Assembly: GCA_040222015.1 (NCBI GenBank) | Contig: JAVJWO010000208.1 | Location: 1 to 31,267 of the forward strand | Origin: Coleofasciculus chthonoplastes F2-STO-03 | GTDB lineage: Bacteria > Cyanobacteriota > Cyanobacteriia > Cyanobacteriales > Coleofasciculaceae | Reading direction: 5' to 3' | DNA: 31,267 nucleotides | Shown: one piece after another, positions 7,805-28,311 of the stretch | Layout: each line of letters begins with the position of its first letter | How positions within the stretch are numbered: position 1 is the first letter of the stretch | The notes under the pieces: model-generated | Database searches by the model: none | What the model was told of the DNA's origin: nothing | The model's input: only the letters and a program-made list of their open reading frames with translations | Position numbers and translations under genes: made by a program

Positions 7805-9246
7805 TTGACACTCCCCCGGTTAAAACGCGGGGGATACCTTCTTCTCCGACTCGCCGTTAGACGACAGGATTGCTCCAACCGTCCAAGAGGGCAAATCTCC
7901 CCAAGCGTAAGTTCCGGTGTGCCCCACCGTACTTAATCCTTTTTGCAGGATGTTTAAACTAGCTGCAATATCCCTGTCCTCAACATACCCGCAGTTACCA
8001 CAAACCATGTCCTCGAACGAAGTGAAGGAATGGGTTCGTTGAGACAGGGATTTTTTGACTCGATGGTGACACTCTGGACAATCTTGGGAGGTGTAGTGCG
8101 GAGGAACCGCGACTGTCACTTTCCCATACTTGTGTCCAAAGTATTCTAACCACCGTCTAAATGTAGACCAGCCTGCATCAGAGATAGACTTAGACAAGTG
8201 ACGATTTCTTACCAAACCTTTAACATTTAAGTCTAGCCTTCGGCAAGCCGCTGGCGCGTCTACGTATGCTACCAAGTCGTTAGATTGGATCACGGAGTAT
8301 GCGACTCGCTTGCAATACTCTTTTCGCTGCCTACTTACTCTTAAATGCTTCCGGGCATATCGGCAACATGCTTTTTGATAGTTGTTTGACTGCGGTTTTG
8401 CTCCCTTTTGGTACTTCTTAGACTTCTTACGGTTGGCTCGATTGAGCTGTCTTTCCGATTGGCGGTAAAACTGCGGCGACTCTTCTGTATGTCCAGTTGA
8501 GTCAGCTAGGAAATATTTGATTCCTAGATCTAATCCGATGGCTCTACCTGTTGGTTGAGTTTTTATTCGGATATTAGCTTTAACCGCAAATTGTGCATAG
8601 TAGCCGTCAGCACGTCTAACTAACCTTACCCGTTTGATTTGGTCAATAGAGTAGAAGAGGAGGTCGTAAGTACCCTTAAGCTTTAGTCGCCCTATTCCTT
8701 TCTTGTCGCTAAAGGTAATGGCTTTTCGATTTTCAGACAGTTTCCAGCCGCTCGTCTTATACTCGACAGAGCGGCAATTCTTCTTGAATCGGGGGAAGCC
8801 AATATTTCCCTTGATTTTGTTTCGACAGTTTTCGTAGAAGCGACTAATTGCACTCCAAGCACGTTCAGCCGATGACTGACGTGCTTGAGAATTGAGTTCC
8901 CCAGCAAAGCTAAACTCTTTTGCTAGTACGCGGCAATATTTGTTGAGGTCGTACTTGTCGATACCTTCGTTATCTATCCAGTACCGCAAGCACTTGTTAT
9001 GGACGAACTGTGCCGTCCGAATCGCCTCATCAATGGCAGCGTATTGAGCGGGTTTAGCTTTTACCTTAAACTCAAAAACTATCATTGTTTTTGCTCAAGA
9101 TTATAATGTTCACTATAGAATAACTAGACCAATTGCGCCAGCCACAACTAAAGTTGTTAGGTTGAACCTTGCTCGGTGAAACCTTGAGCGAAGTCGAAAG
9201 GTTTCATCCCCCGACTAAAGTACGGAGGTTTTCACCATCGCGTTCT
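7805..9246 (-). mobile_element. tnpB-only (IS1341-like) IS200/IS605-family element; no tnpA
   Basis: On the minus strand the right end is the hairpin CCCCCGCGTTTTAACCGGGGG then AGTGTCAA, ending at 7805. The left end has hairpin CCTCCGTACTTTAGTCGGGGG (about 9208-9228), with TTAT (9250-9247) just outside as a plausible target motif. Confidence 0.85.
7820..9085 (-). CDS. tnpB: TnpB RNA-guided endonuclease homolog, predicted nuclease-dead (RuvC-II Glu missing)
   Basis: RuvC-I IGLDLG, zinc finger CPEC...CGNC and RuvC-III DRDIAASLNI are present. The expected DLVAYEDLNV reads DLVAYVDAPAACRRLDLNV. Confidence 0.9.
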   Translation of the reverse strand: MIVFEFKVKAKPAQYAAIDEAIRTAQFVHNKCLRYWIDNEGIDKYDLNKYCRVLAKEFSFAGELNSQARQSSAERAWSAISRFYENCRNKIKGNIGFPRFKKNCRSVEYKTSGWKLSENRKAITFSDKKGIGRLKLKGTYDLLFYSIDQIKRVRLVRRADGYYAQFAVKANIRIKTQPTGRAIGLDLGIKYFLADSTGHTEESPQFYRQSERQLNRANRKKSKKYQKGAKPQSNNYQKACCRYARKHLRVSRQRKEYCKRVAYSVIQSNDLVAYVDAPAACRRLDLNVKGLVRNRHLSKSISDAGWSTFRRWLEYFGHKYGKVTVAVPPHYTSQDCPECHHRVKKSLSQRTHSFTSFEDMVCGNCGYVEDRDIAASLNILQKGLSTVGHTGTYAWGDLPSWTVGAILSSNGESEKKVSPAF

Positions 9247-9734: not shown

Positions 9735-9796
9735 TGACTCTTGACAAATGACTCTTGACAAATGACAAATGACAAATGACAAATGACAAATGACAA
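9735..9796. repeat. Heptamer tandem repeat (TGACAAA)n, STRR-type
   Basis: About nine TGACAAA/TGACTCT units immediately upstream of the lysC RBS (AGGAG 9802-9806). Confidence 0.9.
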
Positions 9797-11889: not shown

Positions 11890-13179
11890 TCAAGGCTTTT
11901 GATCTAAACGAATCGCCCGCTCCAACGCCGTTTTTTCTCTTGACCGACGAACATAAGGCTCTAATTCTTTGACATCTAAACCGCTTAAAATACTCAAATC
12001 CTCCACATTCATCCCTCTCATTAGCATTTCCACACACCATGTCTGTCGCGCTTGCTCAATTGAGGGAGATGGCGTTTCCAACTCAGAGGTAAAGTTACGC
12101 CATGCAACTCTTAATTCTGCCACAGACATCCGTTCCAAGGCTTCATTAACAAACAAGGGTGAGCGATCATCTTTACGACTTTTGAGCCATTGGTTTAAGG
12201 GATTGCGGGTGTAAGAACCATAGCGCTTACCCATAATCCACTGATTTACAGGGACTTGGCGCACGTTACCTTGAGTCACTTGCAATAAGTGTCTGTGAGT
12301 GTCACTAATTTGGTGCGATCGCTCTAAGGCAATAATTTCTTCTATCCGCAACCCCGCACCAAAGAGGACATAGGCGATAGCATAATCCCGTAATCCGCTT
12401 TTTTTGGCTTGTTGCAAAATGTCATGAACTAACGATGCGGGTAAATCGGCTACAGTCTCAGAGGAGATCACCGGAGAAGGCGCATTTGGTGAAGAATTGG
12501 TTACAGGCGGGCGCACTGTCTCCCCTGTGTCGCCGCTTCCCGGTTCTTCCTCCGCCTCTTCCCGTCTCTGTAGCTCTGTGTCTGCAAAAGCTCCGTGTAA
12601 GATGAGTTCGAGCAAACTTTGCAAAAACTCCTCCTGACTTTGCCACAGCTGGTGGAACTCGCTAGTTAGTTCAATCACCAGATACCCGAATAACATCACA
12701 TTAACCAAGCGGGCTAATTTTCCCGCCGACAATCGCAACACTAAGCGATCGCGTTGAATCACGGTGGTAAGATAATCAGCAAAGTCCAGGTTGGCTTGAG
12801 TAACCCCTTCTCCTAACGCCTGACGATGCTCAACCGTATATTTTCCTGACTCCCCAACCACAGAGCGCAGTAATTCGGGCATCTGTTTGAGAACCTGAAG
12901 GCGATCGCGTCCATAGTTGATCAGCGCCTGCTCAAATGTCGTTGTCTGATCGACTTGGGCTCTGAGTGATTCACCCAGACGGGTAAACACGCCAGAGTCT
13001 TCGATCACGGCTAAAAGCAATCCTTGTTTGTTACCAAAGTGACGGAACAGTGTGACTTCATTAACCTGGGCTAATTCAGCAATCTGACGTGTGGTTGTCT
13101 CAGTAACCCCCTGAACGGTAAACAACTCAAGCGCTGCTTGAATTAAACGCGCTCGTGTTGTAGAACTGGTACGAGACAT
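11890..13179 (-). CDS. TetR-family regulator fused to a C-terminal tyrosine-recombinase-like domain
   Basis: N-terminal TetR HTH (RARLIQAALELF...TTTRQIAELAQVNEVTLFRHFGNKQGLL). C-terminal RDYAIAYVLFGAGLRIEEIIAL (integrase box I) and QARQTWCVEML...LSG...PY (degenerate box II). Confidence 0.85.
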   Translation of the reverse strand: MSRTSSTTRARLIQAALELFTVQGVTETTTRQIAELAQVNEVTLFRHFGNKQGLLLAVIEDSGVFTRLGESLRAQVDQTTTFEQALINYGRDRLQVLKQMPELLRSVVGESGKYTVEHRQALGEGVTQANLDFADYLTTVIQRDRLVLRLSAGKLARLVNVMLFGYLVIELTSEFHQLWQSQEEFLQSLLELILHGAFADTELQRREEAEEEPGSGDTGETVRPPVTNSSPNAPSPVISSETVADLPASLVHDILQQAKKSGLRDYAIAYVLFGAGLRIEEIIALERSHQISDTHRHLLQVTQGNVRQVPVNQWIMGKRYGSYTRNPLNQWLKSRKDDRSPLFVNEALERMSVAELRVAWRNFTSELETPSPSIEQARQTWCVEMLMRGMNVEDLSILSGLDVKELEPYVRRSREKTALERAIRLDQKP

Positions 13180-13289: not shown

Positions 13290-14138
13290 ATGACTAATTC
13301 CTCAATCTCAGCGCCTCCTCAAAGTCGCGCTAATCTACCCTTCCATTGGCCCAGTCTGCTGTTTTTTGGCACAATTCACGCCTTGGCACTGCTGGCGCCC
13401 TGGTTTTTTTCATGGTCAGCCTTGGGAGTAATGATACTTCTCCACTGGCTCTTTGGCAGCATTGGCATTTGTTTAGCCTATCATCGGCTTTTGACCCATC
13501 GGAGTCTTCAAGTGCCTAAGTGGTTAGAATATATCCTGACCACCATCGGTGCTGTAGCTCTCCAAGGAGGACCAATCTTTTGGGTAGCAGGACACCGTCA
13601 GCACCATGCTCACCCTGATGATGCAAACAAAGACCCTTACTCAGCACGAAATGGGTTTTGGTGGAGTCACATGCTTTGGCTGTTCTATCATAAGCCCGAA
13701 TTTTTTGATTACGACGTATATCAAAAATACGCTCCTGATATCGCTAGAGATCCTTATTATCGCTGGTTAGATCGCTATTTCTTATTGTTACAACTTCCGC
13801 TGGGTCTATTGCTTTACGTCGTCGGGGGATGGCAATTTGTATTCTGGGGTGTCTTTGTCCGAGCTGTACTACTGTGGCACAGCACCTGGTTAATTAATTC
13901 TGCCACTCACCTGCGCGGTTATCAGACTTATGAAGTTAATGATGGGTCTCGCAATCTCTGGTGGGCAGCTATCTTAACCTACGGAGAAGGTTGGCATAAC
14001 AATCACCACGCTCATCCCAATGTTGCTCCGGCTGGACGTAAATGGTGGGAAATCGATATGACGTGGTGGGCAATTCAAATCCTGCAAGGAGTAGGTTTAG
14101 CAAAAAAAGTCGTCCTCCCGCCTAAAAAGACAGCTTAG
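13290..14138 (+). CDS. desC: Delta-9-type acyl-lipid/acyl-CoA desaturase (DesC-like)
   Basis: Three His boxes HRLLTH, HRQHH, HNNHH; GEGWHNNHH and WWEID motifs; TM segments. Which DesC paralog it is cannot be determined here. Confidence 0.85.
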   Translation: MTNSSISAPPQSRANLPFHWPSLLFFGTIHALALLAPWFFSWSALGVMILLHWLFGSIGICLAYHRLLTHRSLQVPKWLEYILTTIGAVALQGGPIFWVAGHRQHHAHPDDANKDPYSARNGFWWSHMLWLFYHKPEFFDYDVYQKYAPDIARDPYYRWLDRYFLLLQLPLGLLLYVVGGWQFVFWGVFVRAVLLWHSTWLINSATHLRGYQTYEVNDGSRNLWWAAILTYGEGWHNNHHAHPNVAPAGRKWWEIDMTWWAIQILQGVGLAKKVVLPPKKTA

Positions 14139-15902: not shown

Positions 15903-17087
15903 TTGAATTGTACGGAAAAATCCCAATTATCTTCATCTGACAACCTTCAAATTCAATCTTGGCAAACTGGAGACAAGGGAATCGAAGTGGATTATGTCTC
16001 TGGAGTCACCAATACTTTAAATAGGGTAAGCTTGCCGTGGATGTGGCTGCGAGATCACTGTCAATGTAGTTCCTGTTTCACCTCTACGGCACAGAGAGAA
16101 TGTGATGTATTCATTGGCTGGGATAAATTTAGATGGGAGGAAGTCTTTGTCGATACCGATCCCGCCGGGCTGATTATTCAATGGCAGGATAATCACAAAA
16201 GTTACTTTTCTTCCGATTTGCTATGGAAAATGCTCAACATTGAGAACTCCGTAGCCGTCGATGAACGAACATACTGGACGAATGATTTACCCAGTCTTGA
16301 TTATCGAAATGTCCTGGATACAGATATCGGATTAAGACAGTTGGTTGAATATGTCGCACAAGTCGGAGTATGTAAAGTTACGGGTGCTAAGCCGAGTAAA
16401 GCTGACGCGGCTAAACTTATGCAGAGAGTTGCCTATCTTCGGCAGAGTCATTTTGGCAATCTCGTCGAAATTAAGCCATCAAGTCATTCCGGCTATGATG
16501 AAACACATATTCATACCGAGGGAACGTTTAATTACGATCCTCCAGGGATTAAATTAGTTCAATGCCTGGACAAAAATACTTCCCCCTGCGAACTAATTTT
16601 GGTAGACGGGCTGGTGCTTGTTGACAGAATTAAACGTGAAGCACCGCAGACTCTAGGTTTATTACAAAATCATCGGGTGTCTTATCAGTACCTGAATCAG
16701 GATATTAATTTGATTGCTTCCGATTCGGTTGTCACCCTAGATCGGTATAATCGACTCAAGCGTATCCGCTACAATCGGAAAACCCAAGGTTCTTTTTCCG
16801 AGCCGGATTTAGCCAAAAAACAAGCGTTTACAGCCGCTTTTGAGCAGTTTGAGGCATGGCTAGATGAGGAATCTCAACAGCGAAAACTCAGCTTGAATCC
16901 AGGAGAAATGGTGCTGTGGGATAATTGGCGTGTCTTGCATGGTGGCGGCGCGATGGATGGCACTCATCACCTTGCCGTTTGCCTGTCAAATATGGAAGAT
17001 TTCCATAGTCGTCGGCGCGTAATTCAGACTAAATCCGATCAACGTCCTGTTCCCCTGGCTCGTGAAAAAAAGGGAGTTAAACCATGA
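15903..17087 (+). CDS. Gamma-butyrobetaine/trimethyllysine hydroxylase-like TauD/TfdA Fe(II)/2OG dioxygenase with N-terminal Zn domain; atypical active site
   Basis: WLRDHCQCSSC and WQDNHKSYF (GBBH-like N domain), HTEGT, WDNWRVLHGG; TTG start with GAGGAG RBS at 15889-15894. Confidence 0.85.
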   Translation: MNCTEKSQLSSSDNLQIQSWQTGDKGIEVDYVSGVTNTLNRVSLPWMWLRDHCQCSSCFTSTAQRECDVFIGWDKFRWEEVFVDTDPAGLIIQWQDNHKSYFSSDLLWKMLNIENSVAVDERTYWTNDLPSLDYRNVLDTDIGLRQLVEYVAQVGVCKVTGAKPSKADAAKLMQRVAYLRQSHFGNLVEIKPSSHSGYDETHIHTEGTFNYDPPGIKLVQCLDKNTSPCELILVDGLVLVDRIKREAPQTLGLLQNHRVSYQYLNQDINLIASDSVVTLDRYNRLKRIRYNRKTQGSFSEPDLAKKQAFTAAFEQFEAWLDEESQQRKLSLNPGEMVLWDNWRVLHGGGAMDGTHHLAVCLSNMEDFHSRRRVIQTKSDQRPVPLAREKKGVKP

Positions 17088-17926
17088 CAAATTTAAGCAC
17101 GATTGACAAAGATTCGACGCGCCAAAATCTCATCCTCTGGACAGCTAATACATTTGCTAATGGGCTACCAACAGTCACTTTCAATGAAGTCATGACTGAA
17201 TCTAGGGGATTAAAAAAATGGTTAGAAAACATTGCCTGTTATGGTTTGGGCATGGTATCAAATACTCCACACAATCGTGAGTCAACCCGCGCCCTGGTTG
17301 AACGGGTAGCCTATATTCGGATGGATATTTTTGGCGGTTTGGCTGACTCCGATATGAGCGAACCCCATGCTGATAGCGCCTATGCCAATGGATATCTTGC
17401 TGCCCACACGGATGGAACTTATGCCTACGATCCGCCAGGACTGATTTTATTTCATGTTCTGGATCGCGATTATAGTGGGGGAGAGAGCATTTTCATTGAT
17501 GGCTTCTATGCGGCAGAAACTCTACGACAATTATCTCCTGACGCTTTCTCTTTGCTTACCCAGGTTGATATGCCAGGACATTACTTAGAAGTTGATACCC
17601 ATTTAGAAACAAGGCAACCTCTAATTCAACTTGATCCGGAAAACCAGGTTAAGCGAATTCGATTTAATCACATGGATCGCGCCCCGTTTTACTGGGGTGA
17701 AAAAACCACACAGGTCTATGAAGCGCTTTGGGAATGGCGTAAAATTATTGATGACCTAGCCAATCAATATCGCTTTCGTCTCACACCCGGAAATGTTCTC
17801 TTGTTTGACAACTGGCGTCTTTTGCATGGACGATTAGCTTATGTAGGGGAGCGGCGCATGGTAAACTGCTATTTGAACATGGAGGACTTTGAAAGCCGAC
17901 TGAGAGGACTTCGAGCAACTCTCTAG
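17084..17926 (+). CDS. TMLH/BBOX-like TauD/TfdA Fe(II)/2OG dioxygenase, catalytic domain only
   Basis: AHTDGTY..DPPG, GGES.FIDGF, FDNWRLLHGR, GERRM; ATGA overlap with the upstream paralog. Confidence 0.9.
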   Translation: MTNLSTIDKDSTRQNLILWTANTFANGLPTVTFNEVMTESRGLKKWLENIACYGLGMVSNTPHNRESTRALVERVAYIRMDIFGGLADSDMSEPHADSAYANGYLAAHTDGTYAYDPPGLILFHVLDRDYSGGESIFIDGFYAAETLRQLSPDAFSLLTQVDMPGHYLEVDTHLETRQPLIQLDPENQVKRIRFNHMDRAPFYWGEKTTQVYEALWEWRKIIDDLANQYRFRLTPGNVLLFDNWRLLHGRLAYVGERRMVNCYLNMEDFESRLRGLRATL

Positions 17927-18021
17927 AGCGTCGGTAAGCGTAACCAAAGTTAGTGGCTCTTAAGAAGTCAAAAGCCTGCCCTCTTTCCGAAGTGAAGGGT
18001 CAAAAGTCAAAATAGAGGAGA

Positions 18022-18068
18022 TAACAAATAACAAATGACAAATGACAAATAACAAATGACAAATGACA
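18022..18068. repeat. Heptamer tandem repeat (TAACAAA/TGACAAA)n overlapping the aldolase start
   Basis: About seven units running from just after GAGGAG (18015-18020) into the first codons of the aldolase. Confidence 0.85.
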
Positions 18069-19129
18069 GAAGAGGTTTTGCCTCAGATAATCAGGCTGGA
18101 GTCGATCCGGAAATGATGAAGGCTATATTAGCCGCTAATCAGGGACACGCTTATGCCTATGGCGAAGATGAATGGACACAGTTAGCGATAGAAGAATTCC
18201 ACAAGCATTTTGGGGCGGATTGTCAGGTATTTTTTACCTTCGGGGGTACGGGTGCCAATGTATTCGCTTTGGCTTGTTTGTGTCGCTCGTTTGAAGCGAT
18301 ATTATGTTCTCGTGATGCCCATTTATACCATAGTGAATGTGGGGCTGTGGAGAATTTCATTGGTAGTAAAGTCGTTCCGATTGAAACGGCGGATGGGCGT
18401 TTAGATATTCAATCTATCAACGGTTATTTGTCTTGGCAAGACGATGTACATGCTTCTATCCCGCGTGTGATATCTATAACTCAGTCTACGGAATTGGGAA
18501 CGGTGTATCGCCCCTATGAGATTTTAGCGTTAGTAGAATATGCCCATCAGCACGGTATGACTGTTCATATGGATGGTACACGTCTGGTTAATGCCGCCGC
18601 TTCACTGAATTGTTCCTTGGCGGCGCTGACGACGGAACTTGGTATCGACGCGGTATCTTTTGGCGGCACTAAAAATGGGTTTTTGATGGGAGAAGCGGTT
18701 ATATTTCCTCACTCTGACGCTGGGTTGTCTCGGAATTTTTCGGCTATCTGGAAACAAAGTATGCAGATGCCTTCAAAATCTAGATTTATCGCTGCCCAGT
18801 TTTTAGCCTTATTTAAAGATGACCACTGGTTACAAAATGCTAGCCATGAAAATAAAATGGCTCAGTATCTTGCTGAACAAGTATCTAATATTACTGAAGT
18901 GGACATAGTGTATCCTGTAGAGACTAATGCTGTTTTTGCTAGAATCCCATTGGATTGGATTGAACCACTGGTCAAGGTTTGTCATTTTCATGTTTGGGAT
19001 AGTTCGACTGGATTAGTCCGATGGATGACCAATTTCGATACTCAGCCTGAAGATATTGAGCTATTTGTCGGCAAGCTTTATTCTCTTTCTCGTGTCTCGG
19101 TAATTCCGGAAAAGTCCATAATATTATAA
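18056..19129 (+). CDS. PLP-dependent low-specificity L-threonine aldolase family protein
   Basis: FASDN, YGED, GGTGAN, ITQSTELGTVY, HMDGTR, SFGGTKNG (PLP lysine). Confidence 0.92.
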   Translation: MTNDRRGFASDNQAGVDPEMMKAILAANQGHAYAYGEDEWTQLAIEEFHKHFGADCQVFFTFGGTGANVFALACLCRSFEAILCSRDAHLYHSECGAVENFIGSKVVPIETADGRLDIQSINGYLSWQDDVHASIPRVISITQSTELGTVYRPYEILALVEYAHQHGMTVHMDGTRLVNAAASLNCSLAALTTELGIDAVSFGGTKNGFLMGEAVIFPHSDAGLSRNFSAIWKQSMQMPSKSRFIAAQFLALFKDDHWLQNASHENKMAQYLAEQVSNITEVDIVYPVETNAVFARIPLDWIEPLVKVCHFHVWDSSTGLVRWMTNFDTQPEDIELFVGKLYSLSRVSVIPEKSIIL

Positions 19130-19135
19130 CAGAGT

Positions 19136-19771
19136 ATGTCTGAAGAAAAAGTCAAAGATATTTCAGAAACAAGACCTTGGTTCTCGATAATTTTTGATAG
19201 CCAAAGCCCTGAGGAATTAAAAACTAAATACGATAGTTGGGCAAATACCTACGATGCAGATATAAGAGACGATTGGTCTTTTATGCCTGTTAATATAGCA
19301 CGGACATTAAGTAAGCTACTTCCGAATAAAGATGCCACAATTTTAGATGCTGGTGCGGGTACGGGGTTAGTGGGTGAAGCGTTGGCACAAGCAGGATATA
19401 CTAATCTAACTGCTGTAGATTTGTCAGAAAAAATGTTAGCGATCGCTGAAGACAAGCAAGTCTATCAAAGCTTGTATCAGTGTAATTTAGAAAATTCCCC
19501 TATTTTTAGCGAATCAGTAAGTTTCGATGCCATTATCGCCGCAGGGGTTTTTACCCATGCTCATGCAGGAGTTAGAGCTTTAAACAATCTATTTGGTCTT
19601 TTAAAGGAAGAAGGACTATTCTTTTTAACCATACGGGAAGACTATCGCAGTGAAATGCAGACAGCTTTAGATAAATTACCCTGGACATTAGTTAGTAAAG
19701 AGGATTTTCATATCTATGATGAAGTCAAGTTGATGTATCTTCTGGCTTTTAAAAAGGAGCGATCACAATGA
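19136..19771 (+). CDS. Class I SAM-dependent methyltransferase
   Basis: Motif I ILDAGAGTGLVG, VDLSEKML, FDAII; YD.WA.TYD N-terminal motif. Confidence 0.9.
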   Translation: MSEEKVKDISETRPWFSIIFDSQSPEELKTKYDSWANTYDADIRDDWSFMPVNIARTLSKLLPNKDATILDAGAGTGLVGEALAQAGYTNLTAVDLSEKMLAIAEDKQVYQSLYQCNLENSPIFSESVSFDAIIAAGVFTHAHAGVRALNNLFGLLKEEGLFFLTIREDYRSEMQTALDKLPWTLVSKEDFHIYDEVKLMYLLAFKKERSQ

Positions 19772-20550
19772 AGAATAAAAGTATTCACAAATCAACTATA
19801 TCTGAGCAACAAACCTTAAAATATAGAAGGTTTGTAAAAATATATGACCGAGAAGATAGATGTGATATTCCCAAATCTGCTTGGAGACCTCTGACAGACA
19901 ATGCCTATTTACAAACTTGGAAAGGGGTACTTCTGGAAAAAGATCCCATGCAAATTGCAGCTTATCCGATGCTGCTTTACGAGTTGCAACCAAAGACAAT
20001 TATTGAGTTGGGCGCTTTGAAGGGAGGAAGTGCAATTTGGTTAGCAGATCACTTAGAATTATTTGGTATTCAAGGTGAGGTTTACTGTGTTGATAACGAT
20101 CTTTCTCAGCTTGATGAAAAAGCTAAAACCGACTCTCGAATTCATTTTATAGAAGGTGATTGCCAAGAAATTAGTGCAGTTTTACCCACAGAATTACTGT
20201 CTAAATTACCTCATCCTTGGTTAGTGATAGAGGATATTCATGACAATCTAGTTGGTATCCTCGAACATTTTCATCACAATGGTTTGCAAACTGGTGATTA
20301 CTTGATTATTGAAGACACCAATAAATTTATGTGGGAAGTTTGGGATGATTGGGAAGATCAAGAATTAATTCAGCGAGGTTTGCGCAAAATGGATGACTTA
20401 AGAAGCTGGTTAATGAAGCATCAAGATGAGTATTTAATCGATACTTACTACCAGGATATGTATGGTTATAATGTTTCCAAGAATTGGAATTCTATATTAA
20501 AAAGAACTTCAAAGAATGAACAAAAAAATCTTATTAGAACAAGAATTTAA
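19768..20550 (+). CDS. CmcI (cephalosporin hydroxylase / O-methyltransferase-like) family protein
   Basis: WKGV.L.KDP, PKTIIELG..GGSAIWLAD, GDYLIIEDT; ATGA overlap with the methyltransferase. Confidence 0.85.
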   Translation: MKNKSIHKSTISEQQTLKYRRFVKIYDREDRCDIPKSAWRPLTDNAYLQTWKGVLLEKDPMQIAAYPMLLYELQPKTIIELGALKGGSAIWLADHLELFGIQGEVYCVDNDLSQLDEKAKTDSRIHFIEGDCQEISAVLPTELLSKLPHPWLVIEDIHDNLVGILEHFHHNGLQTGDYLIIEDTNKFMWEVWDDWEDQELIQRGLRKMDDLRSWLMKHQDEYLIDTYYQDMYGYNVSKNWNSILKRTSKNEQKNLIRTRI

Positions 20551-21100
20551 AAAAACAGGGGCAAAATTTTTTTTAGCCTCTATGGATGATGTTCATATAA
20601 AGCACTTGATACAATTAGCTCAAGTTCCAAACTTAATAGAGTTAATGGATTGGGGCGGGTTGTTTAAAATTGATGAGACAGAAAAATTTATTCAAGCTAT
20701 TTCATTATACGGTTGTCCCTATTCTCGAAAAAGTGAAATATTATTATTGGGAATTTACTTAGAACCAGAAGAATTACCTATTGGATATGTCATACTCAAA
20801 GGATTAAATATGGATTTATTAACTGCTGAAGTTGGGATAGCAATTCTAGACAAAAAATATAGAGATAAAGGATATGGAAGGTTAGCATTAAACAGAATGA
20901 TTATTTATGCCTTTAATAAGCTAAAGATTAAAACCATTGGAGCAACAATTATTAGCTCAAATAAACAATCAATTAATATGTGTAAAAATCTAGGATTTTT
21001 TGTGAGAGAGATTATGCCTAAATCATGGTCTATGGCTAATGGAGAATTAGTAGATATGCTATGGCTCGAATTAACACCAGTTAAACATAAACGCCTCTAA
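20516..21100 (+). CDS. GNAT N-acetyltransferase (RimJ/RimL-like)
   Basis: AEVGIAI..KYRDKGYG acetyl-CoA motif, N..SI.M.KNLGF; overlaps the CmcI gene by 35 nt. Confidence 0.85.
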   Translation: MNKKILLEQEFKKTGAKFFLASMDDVHIKHLIQLAQVPNLIELMDWGGLFKIDETEKFIQAISLYGCPYSRKSEILLLGIYLEPEELPIGYVILKGLNMDLLTAEVGIAILDKKYRDKGYGRLALNRMIIYAFNKLKIKTIGATIISSNKQSINMCKNLGFFVREIMPKSWSMANGELVDMLWLELTPVKHKRL

Positions 21101-21148: not shown

Positions 21149-22345
21149 ATGACTAGAAAAAATTCCAATCTCTGTAAATTATGTGATTCTTATGCTTGGT
21201 TCACGTTTCAAAATAGGCTAGGGAAGAAAATTGAAGAACATCAATTATCAAATCCACAACAAGAACTGTACATGATGACATGGGGTAACACGACTCAACC
21301 TTTACCATCAAAAGTTGTTGAAGCTTTAGTTGATGCTGCTACTAAGCTAGGGAATAAGTCAACTTATACTGGATATGGGGAATATCAAGGAAATATTAAA
21401 CTAAGAGAAGCTATCTGCAACAATTACTATAAAAAGCGTGGAATTGACCTAAAACCAGCAGAAATTTTCGTCAGTGACGGTTCTCAACCTGCGACTTTTA
21501 GTGTTCAACAACTCTTTAGCTTAGATAATGTCATTGGATTACAATCACCAATGTTTTTTCCCTTTTCAGATGAAAATATTTTAGCAGGTAGAAAGAAAAT
21601 TATCTATCTAGAGTGTAACGAGAACAATAATTTTATTCCCGAGCTTCCTACATCAAAAGTTGATATAATTTACCTATGTTTTCCTAACAATCCAACAGGT
21701 GCGGTTGCTACAAAAGAGCAACTAAAAGTCTTTGTTGATTATGCAATAAATCATAATTCAATTATTATTTTTGATGCTGTTTACAGTGTTTTTATCACAG
21801 ATACTAACATTCCCAGAACTATTTACGAAGTAGAAAACGCAACAAAATGTGCTATTGAAATTGGTAGCTTTTCCAAAATGGCTGGATTTACTGGATTAAG
21901 ATTAGGTTGGTCTGTCGTTCCGTTTGATCTAACTGTTGAACACACCGTAGCAGGAGAGTTGACGGAAATGTTTAGAGTTCTTGAACATACAAGGTTTTTG
22001 GGTGCTTCTAATTTAGTACAAAAAGGAGGGATTGTCGCTTTATCACCACAGTGCCAACAAGAGTATCAAAAAATTATCAACTATTATCTGGAAAATGCTA
22101 AAATTCTCAACAAAGGTTTAGAGACTTTTGGACTTAAGTGTTTTGGTGGGAAGAATAATCCTTATATATGGGCTAAAGGAGCGGAAGGGATGAGTTCTTG
22201 GGAAGTTTTTGACCAACTCTTTTCCAAAGCTGGTATTGTTAGCGTACCTGGTAGCGTATTTGGTTCAAGTGGTGAGGGTTTCTTACGTCTAAGCACTTTT
22301 GTTAATCGAGAAGACATAGAAAAGGCAGTAGAAAAACTTTTATAA
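21149..22345 (+). CDS. PLP class I/II aminotransferase, LL-diaminopimelate aminotransferase (DapL)-like paralog
   Basis: YTGYG..QG...LREAI, IFVSDG, YLCFPNNPTG, IFDAVY, SFSKMAGFTGLRLGW, GEGFLRLS. Several family positions deviate (SDGSQP, FFPFSD), which suggests a different substrate. Confidence 0.85.
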   Translation: MTRKNSNLCKLCDSYAWFTFQNRLGKKIEEHQLSNPQQELYMMTWGNTTQPLPSKVVEALVDAATKLGNKSTYTGYGEYQGNIKLREAICNNYYKKRGIDLKPAEIFVSDGSQPATFSVQQLFSLDNVIGLQSPMFFPFSDENILAGRKKIIYLECNENNNFIPELPTSKVDIIYLCFPNNPTGAVATKEQLKVFVDYAINHNSIIIFDAVYSVFITDTNIPRTIYEVENATKCAIEIGSFSKMAGFTGLRLGWSVVPFDLTVEHTVAGELTEMFRVLEHTRFLGASNLVQKGGIVALSPQCQQEYQKIINYYLENAKILNKGLETFGLKCFGGKNNPYIWAKGAEGMSSWEVFDQLFSKAGIVSVPGSVFGSSGEGFLRLSTFVNREDIEKAVEKLL

Positions 22346-22458
22346 AGTATGAACAATAAATCTATTTGGCTGTAGGACTTCATCCTGTCTAAGGCAAAAC
22401 TATACTAAGATAGGGGATATCCAACTTAGCTCAAGTCGTTATCGGAGATTCCTTGTAT

Positions 22459-23256
22459 ATGGCAAAAAATAAGCATATTGCAATGTGGAGTTGTTCTAGA
22501 AGTCGTTCTACTGCTATAGCTCATGCATTCGAGCAACTGGAAGAATGCTTACTGCTGGATTCGCCTTTGTACGGACCTTATGCTTTCCACCAAGGTACTA
22601 GCTTAGATGCCCTATACAGGCAGGAAATAATAGAGCGTTTTGAAACAGACCACACAAAAGTAATTGAAACGATGATTGGTGGTTTACCTGAAGGTATATC
22701 TTTCTCATTCCAGAGGCATATTGCTAGGACTGCATTGCCTCAATTTGGAAGAAATTATCTACAATCTCTCAACAATTTTTTTTTGATAAGGCATCCTAAA
22801 GAAATTATCTTGTCTTGGCGACAGGTTCAAAAGAGGTTTGGGAAAGTAGAGAAAATTACTAGTCAGGATATTGGTATAGATCTACTTTACGATATCTTTA
22901 GAGATGTTGAAAATATTACTAATAAAACTCCCTTAGTGATTGAATCCAGCGACATAGTTAAAAATCCAAGACAGGTTTTGAAGTTTTTGTGTAATCAATT
23001 TGAGATCATTTTTTCCGAAAAAATGTTAAATTGGGATCGAGGATTGAGCAAATCCAAATTATTGCCAGATCACTTGCTTTCGGCATCAAAATATTGGTCA
23101 AAAACTTGGTACTCAACTCTTGTTGAATCCACAGGGTTTATTCCCTATAAAGAAAGAGAGATGGAATTAGATGAAGAATTAGTTCCCCTCTTGGAATTTT
23201 GTCTTCCTTTTTATGAAAAACTACTTGAACATCGTGTTACTTTTGAGATGTTATAA
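22459..23256 (+). CDS. Sulfotransferase-like (P-loop fold) protein
   Basis: IAMWSCSRSRSTA N-terminal loop, FFLIRHPKEIILS, P.VIES.D...NP, F.EKML.W, WY......STGF. ATG at 22459 preferred over TTG 22453. Confidence 0.75.
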   Translation: MAKNKHIAMWSCSRSRSTAIAHAFEQLEECLLLDSPLYGPYAFHQGTSLDALYRQEIIERFETDHTKVIETMIGGLPEGISFSFQRHIARTALPQFGRNYLQSLNNFFLIRHPKEIILSWRQVQKRFGKVEKITSQDIGIDLLYDIFRDVENITNKTPLVIESSDIVKNPRQVLKFLCNQFEIIFSEKMLNWDRGLSKSKLLPDHLLSASKYWSKTWYSTLVESTGFIPYKEREMELDEELVPLLEFCLPFYEKLLEHRVTFEML

Positions 23257-23282
23257 TGAATAAGCTGGGTTCTCAAGCAAAC

Positions 23283-23513
23283 TTAGATATTCAGAGGCAA
23301 AAAAGACGCAAGGTTTCTGGTGAGGATAGGATTCACCCAACACTCCTTGATATCGCTCATGTTCTCCAGGGGCAAAACAAGCATAAGCACCTGAACCCAG
23401 CTTATCCTCTTCCTCCCAAATACAAAGCCAGGTTGAAAATCTCCTGTGCAGATAAGTTGAACTGGGGAAAAGTTGGGGAAACAATAGGAGTATTTCCCGT
23501 AAAGGGCGTCATC
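23283..23513 (-). pseudogene. Chimeric remnant: Uma2 3' fragment fused to amine-oxidase 3' fragment
   Basis: About 23283-23422 aligns with 24667-24806 of the amine oxidase; about 23423-23513 aligns with the Uma2 3' end (about 26495-26585). Confidence 0.85.
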
Positions 23514-23520
23514 GCTTTAC

Positions 23521-23704
23521 CTCGTGAGACCCCAACCTCAGCGAAGCAGGTTGGGGAGGGATAGAGGTCAAACCGAACCACTCAATGTGGTGAGGTTTGA
23601 CAATCCAGGTGAAGGCACGACATTTCGACTTACCTCGACGGTCAGTGAGCTTGTCGAACTGTGGTCAGTGAGCTTGTCGAACTGTATGAGCGAAGTCGAA
23701 ATGT
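23521..23704 (+). mobile_element. Possible IS200/IS605 left-end remnant carrying nested small repeats
   Basis: Follows TTAC (23517-23520). Hairpins CCCCAACCT..AGGTTGGGG and GTCAAACC..GGTTTGAC; 23-nt tandem duplication (23640-23662, 23663-23685) inside inverted repeat ACATTTCGACTT/AAGTCGAAATGT. Confidence 0.5.
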
Positions 23705-24590: not shown

Positions 24591-26123
24591 TCAGCTATTT
24601 TCCAGAACATCAATTGTTGCCGCAAGTGCTGTCTGAATTGCCCCTTGCACAGAAGCATGATTAATACCCAGATGTTCCCCGGCAAAAAAGACGCGAGGTT
24701 GCTGTTGAGGATGGGATTCACCCAACCATCCTTGATATCGCTCATGTTCTCCTGGGGCAAAAAAGGCATAAGAGCCAGAACCCAGTTTAGCCTCTTCATC
24801 CCAAATATAGTGAATTATATCATCAACGTATGGCTCAATCTGAGGATGGAGTTGCTTAACCTCGCGCAATGTCAATTCAGTGCGATCGCGTGCTTCAAGA
24901 GTGCGGAATTTGCGTGAATTCCCTTCCCAACGATAAGCCGCCGTAAATGCAGTCGGTTGATCGGAAAGTTCGCGATCGCGGGCTATCCAGTGAGGATTGT
25001 CTGATTGTTGATCGGCTAAGATGGCATTATCATCAGGATACCAACATTTTTCGATATTTAAGTCAGTAAAACTTCCGCCACCATAAATCCCATCCTCAAA
25101 CTCCCAAGGACGAGCGGTACAGTGAAATAAGGTTTTCGCGGCGCTACAATACCCCAGACTGTTAATCGCTTCCCTTTGTTTAGCAGGTAAAGGCGGATCA
25201 AAATCAATTTGTGCCAAAGCCGTAGCCGGAACCGTACAGATGACACAATCAAACTCGGCGCTTTGTTTACCCTGTAAACTACTCCAGTGGAGTTTAACGC
25301 CAGAATCCGTTAGCTCTATGGCTGTCACCTGAGCTTGAGTCTGAATGTCCCCTGATATTCTTGCCACAAACGCTTTCACCAGGGTTTCCATCCCGCCGAC
25401 TAACTTATACTGTTCTACTCGATGCCAAGCAAAAAAGTCAATTAACCCATTCAAAAGAGAAACTTGATCATAATGGATCATCCCTGTCCCATGACCGACG
25501 AATTCAAAAGCATCAGGAGATAGGCGATCGCGAAAATATTGGGTTAACGAGAGGCTGTCGTATTCTCTGAGTCGGGAGCTGGTGAAGCTAGGGGAAAACA
25601 TCTCCCATTTCTCCTGATCAGACAAAGACTCGATTAACTCCTCTAAAATAGTTTCGTAAATTACCGCCGGATCTTGCTGCTCTTCCGGGGTTAACTTATA
25701 ATTATATAATAGGGGTTGATAATTGTCAAGGCGAGTCTTTTTGCCCCGTAAATAATAATAGGCGGCGGGATTGTAACTAACGAATTGTCTTCTGTCTAAA
25801 TTAAACTTATCCATATAATGGAGGGTGCAACCATGACTAGCCGGAACCCTCATGGCTCCCAATTCTGCATGGCTACCATCATGGAAATAGTGAGTATAAA
25901 TACGACCCCCTAAACGCCCAGAACTTTCCAACAGAGTAACCTGGTGCTGCAATTGACTCAATTCATAAGCACAAGTAAGTCCAGCAATTCCCCCACCGAT
26001 AATACCAATTCTGTGGCGAATTCCTTGGGAATCATAGCTAGCCAGAGAACCCGGATGAGAGTAGAGAAGATCGAAGGAAAAAGGTTGATTTAACTGTTGT
26101 TGATGACGATAAGGATTAAACAT
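24591..26123 (-). CDS. Flavin-dependent amine / L-amino-acid oxidase family protein
   Basis: IGIIGGGIAGL dinucleotide fold, LESSGRLGGR, ELGAMRVP, FFAGEH...ASVQGA. ATG at 26123 preferred because the upstream in-frame extension to 26318 is repeat/promoter DNA. Confidence 0.9.
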   Translation of the reverse strand: MFNPYRHQQQLNQPFSFDLLYSHPGSLASYDSQGIRHRIGIIGGGIAGLTCAYELSQLQHQVTLLESSGRLGGRIYTHYFHDGSHAELGAMRVPASHGCTLHYMDKFNLDRRQFVSYNPAAYYYLRGKKTRLDNYQPLLYNYKLTPEEQQDPAVIYETILEELIESLSDQEKWEMFSPSFTSSRLREYDSLSLTQYFRDRLSPDAFEFVGHGTGMIHYDQVSLLNGLIDFFAWHRVEQYKLVGGMETLVKAFVARISGDIQTQAQVTAIELTDSGVKLHWSSLQGKQSAEFDCVICTVPATALAQIDFDPPLPAKQREAINSLGYCSAAKTLFHCTARPWEFEDGIYGGGSFTDLNIEKCWYPDDNAILADQQSDNPHWIARDRELSDQPTAFTAAYRWEGNSRKFRTLEARDRTELTLREVKQLHPQIEPYVDDIIHYIWDEEAKLGSGSYAFFAPGEHERYQGWLGESHPQQQPRVFFAGEHLGINHASVQGAIQTALAATIDVLENS

Positions 26124-26317: not shown

Positions 26318-26476
26318 TAGGACTTACGCTTTCTTGACGGCACAGGCGCTACCTGTAAGGGCACGGCAGTGCCGTGCCCCTACCAAGATTGTGGGTGATG
26401 GGCGCATGCGGTGCAGGGCAAAAGCTGGCAAAGGGCGCACAACCTGCGCCCCTACATTCTACCAACGTAAGTCCTA
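26318..26476. mobile_element. MITE-like element with 11-bp terminal inverted repeats and internal REP hairpins
   Basis: TAGGACTTACG (26318-26328) and CGTAAGTCCTA (26466-26476), with TA at both ends; internal hairpin GGGCACGGCAGTGCCGTGCCC. Confidence 0.75.
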
Positions 26477-27384: not shown

Positions 27385-28311
27385 ATGAGACAGTATTCTC
27401 CACTCACAATTGTTTCCTATCTAATCGGTCCGACGCTGATTATCTTTAGCCATATCGGATCGTTACTTGTTTTAATCACGGGTTTATCGTGGGGCGCTTT
27501 CCTATGGATCATATTTTTATATGTTATCCGTATGCTGGCAACAACCGGCATCTACCATCGACTACTCACCCACAAAAGCTATCAAGCTCCGGCTCCAGTT
27601 CTATGGGTGGGAAGTATTGTGGGAGCATCGGCGGGGCAGATGGGTCCAAGTTGGTGGAAAGCACACCATGTAGCCCATCATAAACATGTCGATCAAGATC
27701 TTGATCCCCATTCCCCCTGTACACCCTTTCAGGGGATCAGAGGATTTTATTGGTCTCAAGGAGGTTGGCTACTATCTCCCCGCTTTTTTCCTGCCAAGCT
27801 ACCCGCTGATGTTGAGAGTGATACGGTTTTAAAGGTGATTGACCGTTTGCACTTTATCCCTGTAGTGGCACTTGGGGCAATTTCTTATGTCATGGGTGGC
27901 GTTGAATATCTGGGTGCATTTTTTCTCAGCACAACCCTGCTGTTTCATGGCGTGCAAACCGTCAACTCCCTTTGTCATATTGTGGGGGAACAACCATTTG
28001 TCACCGATGATCTCAGTCGCAATAATAAGTTAGTCGCATTTCTAACTCTGGGTGAAGGCTGGCATAATCTCCATCATGCCTTTCAGTCATCCAGTCGCCA
28101 TGGGATCACTATTTATTCTGGACAGGTTGTCTATCTTCCCGATCCCACATTTAGCTTCATTAAAATGCTTGAGTTCTTAAAGTTAGCGTCAAAGCTTAGA
28201 GTGCCGACTGAAATCAATCTGCTGGCACGTTCCCAGGTTGTAAGCTTTCAGTCTTCCGAGTTGCCAGCTACAGTAAAAACATCGGTAGGTTCTGAACACC
28301 CCTCTAGTTAA
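27385..28311 (+). CDS. Second membrane di-iron desaturase (delta-9-like), divergent
   Basis: His boxes HRLLTH, HVAHH, HNLHH; DPHSP; LTLGEGWHN. Confidence 0.88.
   Translation: MRQYSPLTIVSYLIGPTLIIFSHIGSLLVLITGLSWGAFLWIIFLYVIRMLATTGIYHRLLTHKSYQAPAPVLWVGSIVGASAGQMGPSWWKAHHVAHHKHVDQDLDPHSPCTPFQGIRGFYWSQGGWLLSPRFFPAKLPADVESDTVLKVIDRLHFIPVVALGAISYVMGGVEYLGAFFLSTTLLFHGVQTVNSLCHIVGEQPFVTDDLSRNNKLVAFLTLGEGWHNLHHAFQSSSRHGITIYSGQVVYLPDPTFSFIKMLEFLKLASKLRVPTEINLLARSQVVSFQSSELPATVKTSVGSEHPSS

Follow-up and report, generated by a model that had tools for sequence, protein, structure and literature searches.

Does a cyanobacterium carry the genes for carnitine synthesis? The question is raised by a contig of Coleofasciculus chthonoplastes F2-STO-03 (NCBI GenBank assembly GCA_040222015.1, contig JAVJWO010000208.1, positions 1 to 31,267 of the forward strand; this whole stretch of 31,267 nucleotides is called the window below), in which two homologs of trimethyllysine hydroxylase (TMLH) and γ-butyrobetaine hydroxylase (BBOX), here called gene A and gene B, are followed by an aldolase of the threonine aldolase type. 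A first-pass annotation, made from the sequence alone, took these genes for homologs of three of the four carnitine enzyme types, followed by a methyltransferase, and proposed either a bacterial carnitine/betaine-type route or a branch converting the aldehyde intermediate into a methylated diamine. It also held that de novo carnitine synthesis is not established in bacteria, in agreement with the available text of PMC8085414, which describes such synthesis as unobserved in prokaryotes; the window locus leaves that statement unchanged. We consider it reasonably probable that a cassette of A, B and the aldolase occupies the decarboxylase slot of a gene cluster that begins with a DUF3326 protein, that A and B together make one heterodimeric β-hydroxylase, and that the aldolase frees glycine from the hydroxylated product.

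Placement of the two oxygenases

Gene A, gene B and the aldolase are real and adjacent open reading frames (ORFs) on the plus strand, with the coordinates and order of the first-pass annotation (Table 1), in a genome that is 99.99% complete. Both oxygenases match the TMLH and BBOX models (E 1e-43 to 1e-66), at scores below the respective cut-offs: 162 bits for A and 223 bits for B with the TMLH model (TIGR02410, cut-off 268), and 151 bits for A and 190 bits for B with the BBOX model (TIGR02409, cut-off 415). They are the sole members of the family in the genome, and their closest solved structures by sequence are BBOX and TmpA (E 1e-32 to 1e-34). The annotation had proposed a phylogeny with TMLHE, BBOX1 and bacterial BBOX. 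In a quick IQ-TREE analysis (LG+C20, 46 rows, only two of them named BBOX rows), A and B fall on the TMLH side of a split with 97% SH-aLRT support, nested within bacterial TMLH-like proteins (support 93), and FastTree also places both on the TMLH side. By this tree test neither A nor B is a BBOX, and gene B has Asp at the position of BBOX Asn191 (Asp231 in TMLH); the two oxygenases are thus both TMLH-side, and not a TMLH and a BBOX. Orthologues of B with accompanying DNA were found in Moorena producens 3L (locus L021), Scytonema sp. PMC 1070.18 (L022) and a 3.9 kb metagenome contig (L023, one of the 14 loci of its search).

Other full-length bacterial TMLH-like genes adjoin an amino-acid permease and a flavoprotein, and no aldolase or DUF3326 was present among the 41 ORFs scanned at 8 of 13 such loci. 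The TMLH-like gene comes straight after the permease in L026, L028, L034 and L036, and a flavoprotein lies nearby in L030 and L036; the permease-linked genes possibly serve the uptake and breakdown of trimethyllysine.

Gene B and gene A

The functional residues of TMLH given in the available text of PMC7764450 comprise the iron ligands H242, D244 and H389, the 2-oxoglutarate residues R391 and R398, the cage residues Y217, W221 and Y234, and D231 and N334 for the amino-acid head. This numbering was transferred through residue spacing, which is identical in gene B (83, 87, 97, 100, 108, 110; 248, 250, 257), and counts refer to an alignment of 161 proteins (sequences <270 aa excluded; 9 B, 14 A and 133 other relatives) whose rows include near-duplicates and are not independent. 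Gene B has H108-D110-H248, R250, R257, D97 and N195 intact, and its nine rows all retain the equivalents of the iron triad, R391, R398, D231, N334 and Y234. Its cage consists of F83 (Y217), A87 (W221) and Y100 (Y234) in 9/9 rows; of the 133 other relatives, 110 have Trp and 130 have an aromatic residue at the W221 position. The annotation had named the absence of a quaternary-ammonium cage as one half of what would refute its proposal, and at the sequence level the Trp-to-Ala change bears this out. Position 81 is Asp in all nine B rows, and Thr or Ser in 133/133 other relatives. Under stronger purifying selection than A (dN/dS 0.10-0.14), gene B is likely a TMLH-like catalytic subunit, and its kept D231 and N334 equivalents, lost Trp and added Asp would fit a substrate side chain that is lysine-like, non-quaternary, protonated and extended.

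No zinc domain was found on gene B by Pfam scan or upstream frame check. A single open codon precedes its ATG in frame in the window (1, 6, 6 and 24 over four loci), too few to encode an N-terminal domain, and gene A holds the only copy of the zinc motif in the genome. The same truncation is seen in all seven B-clade clusters (280-288 aa), while most other family matches have 360-470 aa. A frameshift or misassembly splitting one gene was considered and rejected: A and B each encode a complete catalytic domain, four loci and a contig of run X1 spanning the A/B junction show the same layout, and B is preceded by only 1-24 open codons.

Gene A carries the same zinc-domain ligands as BBOX, with C53, C55, C58 and H98 kept in 10/10 sequences. 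It lacks the 2-oxoglutarate residues of TMLH, since R391 is replaced by Gly and R398 by His in 13 of 14 rows, the fourteenth being truncated; the D-R pair following the N334 equivalent is also lost, the W221 position is never Trp, and the D231 equivalent is kept in 4/14 rows. The gene is full length and stop-free in 4/4 loci (its start codon, TTG in the window, aligns with an ATG at the same point in L021), and shows relaxed purifying selection (dN/dS 0.23-0.28, dS up to 1.07) and an evolution about twice as fast as that of B. Gene A is likely a TMLH-derived, non-catalytic subunit.

Two other accounts of gene A bear on this assignment. The first, which we regard as improbable, makes A an active iron enzyme using another 2-oxo acid or no co-substrate, with B acting alone or alongside. 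The H-x-D/E...H metal triad is indeed kept in 13/13 full-length rows, in which the Gly/His replacement motif is also the same, and an L-amino-acid-oxidase-like gene near all three long A/B loci is a possible source of the 2-oxo acid. However, that oxidase gene is also present in related loci that carry a decarboxylase in place of A and B, the substrate residues of A are lost, the iron Asp (D244) is Glu in 3/14 rows, the window copy included, A evolves the faster of the two, and the missing zinc domain of B is left unexplained. The second account, in which the cassette is non-functional, A being a duplicate in decay and B an impaired TMLH, is scarcely credible: the long A branch and the lost catalytic residues would suit it, but not the intact length of A in every locus, its dN/dS and invariant zinc ligands, or a truncation of B that is the same in every cluster.

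A predicted A:B heterodimer

In BBOX, the zinc domain of one subunit sits against the catalytic domain of its partner. TMLH is a single chain forming a homodimer according to the available text of PMC7764450, and BBOX is a dimer according to that of PMC12067446. The window system differs from TMLH as described there in having the zinc domain and the working active site on two genes, as well as in its Ala for the cage Trp; the two genes overlap by ATGA in three of four loci. The predicted A:B complex scores 0.89, against 0.52 for the best of three controls; 116 of 157 solved complexes and 2 of 215 mismatched pairs attain the mark used. At least 79% of contacts are common to the runs, and the partner pLDDT is at least 83. 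The 41 predicted interface residues of A have a conservation of 0.86, compared with 0.74 elsewhere (1 in 10,000 random draws was as high). By contrast, the docking surface of A that such a complex would orphan (17 residues, equivalent to B 196-223, the part of the B interface taken to lie under the zinc domain) has a conservation of 0.61 vs 0.76, and Y212 is found in 132/133 other relatives and 7/7 B, and in 0/10 A. The interface of B shows no significant excess (0.91 vs 0.88 for the rest of B, p 0.20). With complementary losses, of the arginines in A and of the zinc domain in B, the two proteins are likely to form one heterodimeric β-hydroxylase, in which A is predicted to lend its zinc domain to the substrate-binding face of B.

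One slot for the cassette or a decarboxylase

All A/B loci have the order long-form DUF3326, A, B, methyltransferase. In the window, the aldolase is a separate gene placed after B and ahead of the methyltransferase; in L021 and L022, aldolase and methyltransferase make up a single fused protein. The cassette is rare, occurring in 2/52 genomes of its own family, 1/389 in the family of G408, and 1/400 others in the order. Long-form DUF3326 occurs in 20 of 400 other genomes of the order (~5%). All 20 regions were fetched and their ORFs clustered; 19 lack A/B and encode a protein of 400-480 aa, all of these proteins falling in a single cluster. This protein directly follows DUF3326 in 17 of the 19, and all nine scanned members are Orn/Lys/Arg decarboxylases (PF01276; PDB match 2x3l, E 7e-29). 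The twentieth locus (L045, genome G262) has A, B and the aldolase and no decarboxylase; its proteins matched those of L021, and both are counted once. No orthologue of the sibling decarboxylase was found in 3/3 A/B genomes, only ~30% identical matches; a true copy of the cluster decarboxylase is present in G007, a genome from the window's genus.

In DNA alignments of two A/B loci with two decarboxylase loci, similarity extends to the DUF3326 stop codon, is lost beyond it, and returns from the start of the methyltransferase onwards; the methyltransferase is common to both types. In a tree of 22 DUF3326 proteins, from which L045 (a duplicate) and L054 (a broken gene) were excluded, the distribution of the four A/B loci requires at least four changes, and their grouping in a single clade is rejected (p-AU 1.5e-39). 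The window DUF3326 shares 94.5% identity with a copy from a decarboxylase-type locus, as against 89% with that of L021. Between the window and L021, dS is 0.43 for A and B and 0.66 for DUF3326; the lower value for A and B fits movement of the cassette. At the level of DNA and protein sequence, these results establish the slot with its borders, the presence in it of either the cassette or the decarboxylase and never both, and the reciprocal losses of A and B. The first-pass annotation had passed over these losses, as well as the upstream DUF3326 gene by which the cluster is defined.

The 24 locus rows of the cluster family commonly include a CmcI-like methyltransferase (15), a cupin (13) and an amino-acid oxidase (8), and vary further in PhyH, TauD, Rieske and proline-hydroxylase-like oxygenases, several fetched regions stopping at contig ends. 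The family was present in 6/6 genomes of one sampled genus, and is scattered across the order.

The aldolase and the carnitine question

The aldolase is a PLP enzyme of the beta-eliminating-lyase family that aligns over its full length to solved threonine aldolases, is single copy in the genome, and has a GGTKNG motif whose lysine we take to be the functional lysine of a fold-type-I PLP aldolase. It and the oxygenases belong to the same families as hydroxytrimethyllysine (HTML) aldolase and TMLH, and the residues for iron, 2-oxoglutarate and the amino-acid head that the available text of PMC7764450 gives for TMLH are conserved in B. By analogy, the same C3 hydroxylation and glycine release are likely, and the hydroxylation and retro-aldol chemistry invoked by the first-pass annotation was a sound inference. 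In E. coli, host enzymes can fill the two middle steps of the carnitine pathway (available text of PMC8085414), and, in the way proposed there for E. coli, a host threonine aldolase or serine hydroxymethyltransferase may supply the aldolase step in L023.

A bacterial carnitine or γ-butyrobetaine route would use B as TMLH, the aldolase as HTML aldolase, an aldehyde dehydrogenase in trans, and A or another protein as BBOX. In its favour are the higher score of B with the TMLH model and its kept D231, N334 and Y234 equivalents, nine aldehyde-dehydrogenase-family matches in the genome on contigs other than the window, the E. coli precedent for the middle steps, and a third BBOX-family gene in L022. 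We nevertheless consider such a route very unlikely. Of the four-step set (TMLH, aldolase, aldehyde dehydrogenase and BBOX), the genome has no competent BBOX: neither protein groups with BBOX, A is without the 2-oxoglutarate arginines, B has the Asp noted above, and the genome holds no other family member. The cage Trp of B is lost, the cassette is rare and replaces a decarboxylase in a specialised cluster, and a BCCT transporter is present in 0/3 A/B genomes. Nor is an aldehyde dehydrogenase clustered: in line with the annotation, a Pfam scan of 16 of the 30 listed window ORFs revealed none. In L022, the third enzyme is without the cage aromatics and has counterparts in four decarboxylase-type loci.

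That enzyme belongs to a third BBOX-family clade (L022:13335-14456, L048, L049, L052 and L055) with intact iron and 2-oxoglutarate residues, which occurs in both cluster types. The equivalents of W and Y234 are absent in 5/5 members.

In the guanitoxin pathway, β-hydroxylation by GntD precedes the retro-aldol step of GntG. A cyanobacterial precedent is found in the available text of bioRxiv 10.1101/2023.03.21.533663, where GntG retro-aldol cleavage is followed by GntE transamination. A guanitoxin-type cluster was rejected for the window, since the aldolase reaches 85 bits with the GntG model (cut-off 230) and the aminotransferase 159 bits with the GntC model (cut-off 415); the gene content also differs.

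The aminotransferase that the annotation had seen in the window is an LL-diaminopimelate-aminotransferase-like protein, 40% identical to a second copy on C162. None of the other 23 locus rows contains a counterpart, and the enzyme is not constant in the A/B loci (L045 has a different class I aminotransferase ~9 kb upstream); together with a GNAT acetyltransferase, it is a low-GC extra that is also found on contigs of run X1. Relative to solved DapL, it has DGSQP for DGSKC and TRFLG for TKFNG, at positions that presumably bind the far end of diaminopimelate, which suggests a substrate other than diaminopimelate. The second option of the annotation, a branch from the aldehyde to a methylated diamine, came near in kind, being directed to a modified amine.

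DUF3326 and the proposed pathway

A DUF3326 protein is also part of the pavettamine system PavABC of Burkholderia sensu lato. According to the available text of bioRxiv 10.64898/2026.06.12.731819, in which cyanobacteria are unmentioned, PavB is the DUF3326 protein and PavA bears a decarboxylase, loss of either abolishes bis(5-aminopentyl)amine, and the order of the PavA and PavB steps is not settled by the authors. Compared with the system as described there, the cyanobacterial cluster likewise combines DUF3326 with a head-removing enzyme for a basic amino acid and with oxygenases, and the decarboxylase partner is also seen in 19/20 sibling loci. By contrast, the window slot holds the TMLH-derived pair and the aldolase, with no partner decarboxylase at the locus, PavA is of Rieske/racemase fold while the sibling decarboxylase is PF01276, and the cyanobacterial cluster adds methyltransferases and an amino-acid oxidase.

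The window DUF3326 is 31% identical to the other DUF3326 of the genome (C134). Its structural model (pLDDT 87) gave a best TM of 0.22 with Foldseek and a best Z of 9.2 with VIA-align (rmsd 3.5 over 132 residues), the saccharopine reductase row (Z 7.9, rmsd 7.2 over 143 residues) being within noise; deoxyhypusine and homospermidine synthases were unlisted among the fold matches, which does not exclude them. An Atlas search with DUF3326 gave DUF3326 clusters alone, and tblastn of a plasmid collection for comparison with PavB gave no match. We infer that DUF3326 is likely a C-N condensing enzyme.

In the proposed pathway, DUF3326 would make an N-substituted (aminoalkyl-extended) amino acid, the most likely substrate of B; B would hydroxylate C3 of this α-amino acid with its lysine-like, non-quaternary side chain, and the aldolase would cleave the hydroxylated product to glycine and an aldehyde. 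Because the decarboxylase and the β-hydroxylase-aldolase pair both act on the α-amino-acid head, their substrate is probably shared: decarboxylase-type siblings would take off CO2 and leave an amine, while the cassette would take off glycine and leave an aldehyde one carbon shorter. This aldehyde would then be cyclised, transaminated or methylated, giving a polyamine-type or small alkaloid product. More tentatively, a homodimeric TMLH may have been split into an obligate half-of-sites heterodimer, composed of a zinc-domain pseudoenzyme and a catalytic subunit stripped of that domain, and adapted to a polyamine-extended amino acid; together with the aldolase it would be a plug-in cassette exchanged for the decarboxylase, changing the chain length within an undescribed and widespread family of DUF3326-derived polyamines or alkaloids.

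The same enzymes could also act upstream of DUF3326, converting free lysine, or mono- or dimethyl-lysine supplied by the methyltransferase, to 4-aminobutanal or, if transamination follows, a C4 diamine for condensation by DUF3326, with the sibling decarboxylase giving a C5 diamine. This arrangement, which we think unlikely, accounts for the swap equally, and is favoured by the unsettled order of PavA and PavB in the pavettamine work, by the lost cage Trp, which fits an unmethylated amine, and by the extra aminotransferase in the window. However, that aminotransferase is without partner in the other loci, the Trp-to-Ala change and D81 would suggest a side chain larger and more cationic than lysine, and the methyltransferase lies behind the aldolase, to which it is fused in two of three long loci.

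Several observations weigh against the preferred reading, in which a heterodimeric hydroxylase and its aldolase occupy the decarboxylase slot downstream of DUF3326. A and B are sisters at a support of only 34 in the IQ-TREE analysis and are not grouped together by FastTree, and A keeps a metal triad that a scaffold need not have. The complex score may reflect likeness to the solved BBOX homodimer, one control having reached 0.52; the orphaned surface of A contains two substrate-binding residues, and the conservation tests rest on related, non-independent sequences. L023 has A and B without an adjacent aldolase, and only four A/B loci were read with gene order. The DUF3326 model has no specific functional fold match by Foldseek and VIA-align, and PavB, as described in the available text of the preprint, is compared here with the window DUF3326 at the level of their common Pfam family.

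Other features of the window and related clusters

Table 1. Features of the window discussed in the text
Feature	Position	Strand	Evidence and remarks
TnpB-like ORF, IS200/IS605-type element	7820-9085	-	assigned by eye
TetR protein with fused tyrosine-recombinase-like C-terminal domain	11890-13179	-	divergent from the fatty-acid desaturase
Fatty-acid desaturase	13290-14138	+	
DUF3326, long form, 436 aa	14545-15855	+	PF11805, E 8e-71; first gene of cluster
Gene A, 394 aa, GBBH-like N-terminal zinc domain then TauD domain	15903-17087	+	PF06155 + PF02668
Gene B, 280 aa, TauD domain only	17084-17926	+	Pfam scan; ATGA overlap with gene A
Aldolase, 357 aa, low-specificity L-threonine-aldolase type, pyridoxal phosphate (PLP)	18056-19129	+	PF01212; PDB 5vye, E 4e-85
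Class I S-adenosylmethionine (SAM) methyltransferase	19136-19771	+	Pfam; best PDB match METTL27; right border of cassette
CmcI/rhamnosyl O-methyltransferase-like	19768-20550	+	PF04989; core gene of cluster family
GNAT acetyltransferase	20516-21100	+	Pfam; accessory; GC 0.30; without partner in other 23 locus rows
LL-diaminopimelate-aminotransferase-like, extra copy	21149-22345	+	TIGR03542, 446 bits, cut-off 365; accessory
Sulfotransferase-domain protein	22453-23256	+	PF19798; accessory; family also in L043 and L021
L-amino-acid-oxidase-like flavoprotein	24591-26123	-	Pfam/PDB matches
Second desaturase	27385-28311		

The longest ORF of the amino-acid-oxidase-like gene begins at 26318, and its homologues begin at the Met at 26123. 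A minus-strand remnant (23278-23502) has 57% identity to the C-terminal part of this gene, and a 102-aa ORF on the opposite strand (23256-23564), without Pfam match, is probably spurious. The two desaturases adjoin each other in G007 and lie apart in the window, so the local gene order differs between the two genomes. Heptamer tandem repeats of TGACAAA type are present at 9742-9796 and 18024-18068; the latter overlaps the start of the aldolase, which begins further in than those of L021 and L022. Promoter and terminator scans of the window were at chance level (25 vs 26 and 9 vs 7.5). RNA-library contigs of two studies overlap portions of genes A and B, of the aldolase gene and of the methyltransferase gene; DNA carry-over is possible, and they are hence no proof of expression.

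Some related clusters contain further genes. In L058 and L059, DUF3326 and the decarboxylase are followed by six tandem paralogues of 509-537 aa, two of which were scanned and gave weak radical-SAM matches. In L060, L061 and L062, one cluster combines DUF3326, one or two decarboxylases, an A-T-C nonribosomal peptide synthetase module, a MatE exporter and a methyltransferase, and L060 and L061 also have a B12-dependent radical SAM gene. A second DUF3326 module lies upstream of the A/B cluster in L045 (653-11917), with a 125-aa DUF3326 fragment and an interrupting transposase-like ORF, and includes a PhyH-like protein, a class II aldolase, an aminotransferase, 2-hydroxyacid dehydrogenases and PRMT-like methyltransferases; a related DUF3326 module in L046 is intact and has two decarboxylases.

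Implications

No account of the cluster family, the cassette, or a heterodimeric TMLH/BBOX was found in searches of the open-access literature; the parts belong to known families, and their arrangement appears to be undescribed. The evidence on DUF3326 function is genetic and comes from a single pathway, no reaction being known, and the swap offers a direct handle on it: the two natural cluster versions differ in one slot, so that comparison of their products would test both the output of DUF3326 and the order of steps. If the heterodimer is true, it would provide a natural test of the roles of the zinc domain and of dimerization in BBOX/TMLH enzymes. A 'trimethyllysine dioxygenase' label in such genomes is no sign of carnitine synthesis; what the locus points to is an undescribed small-molecule cluster family in ~5% of sampled cyanobacterial genomes (20/400), some of whose DUF3326 kin make a toxic polyamine in other bacteria.

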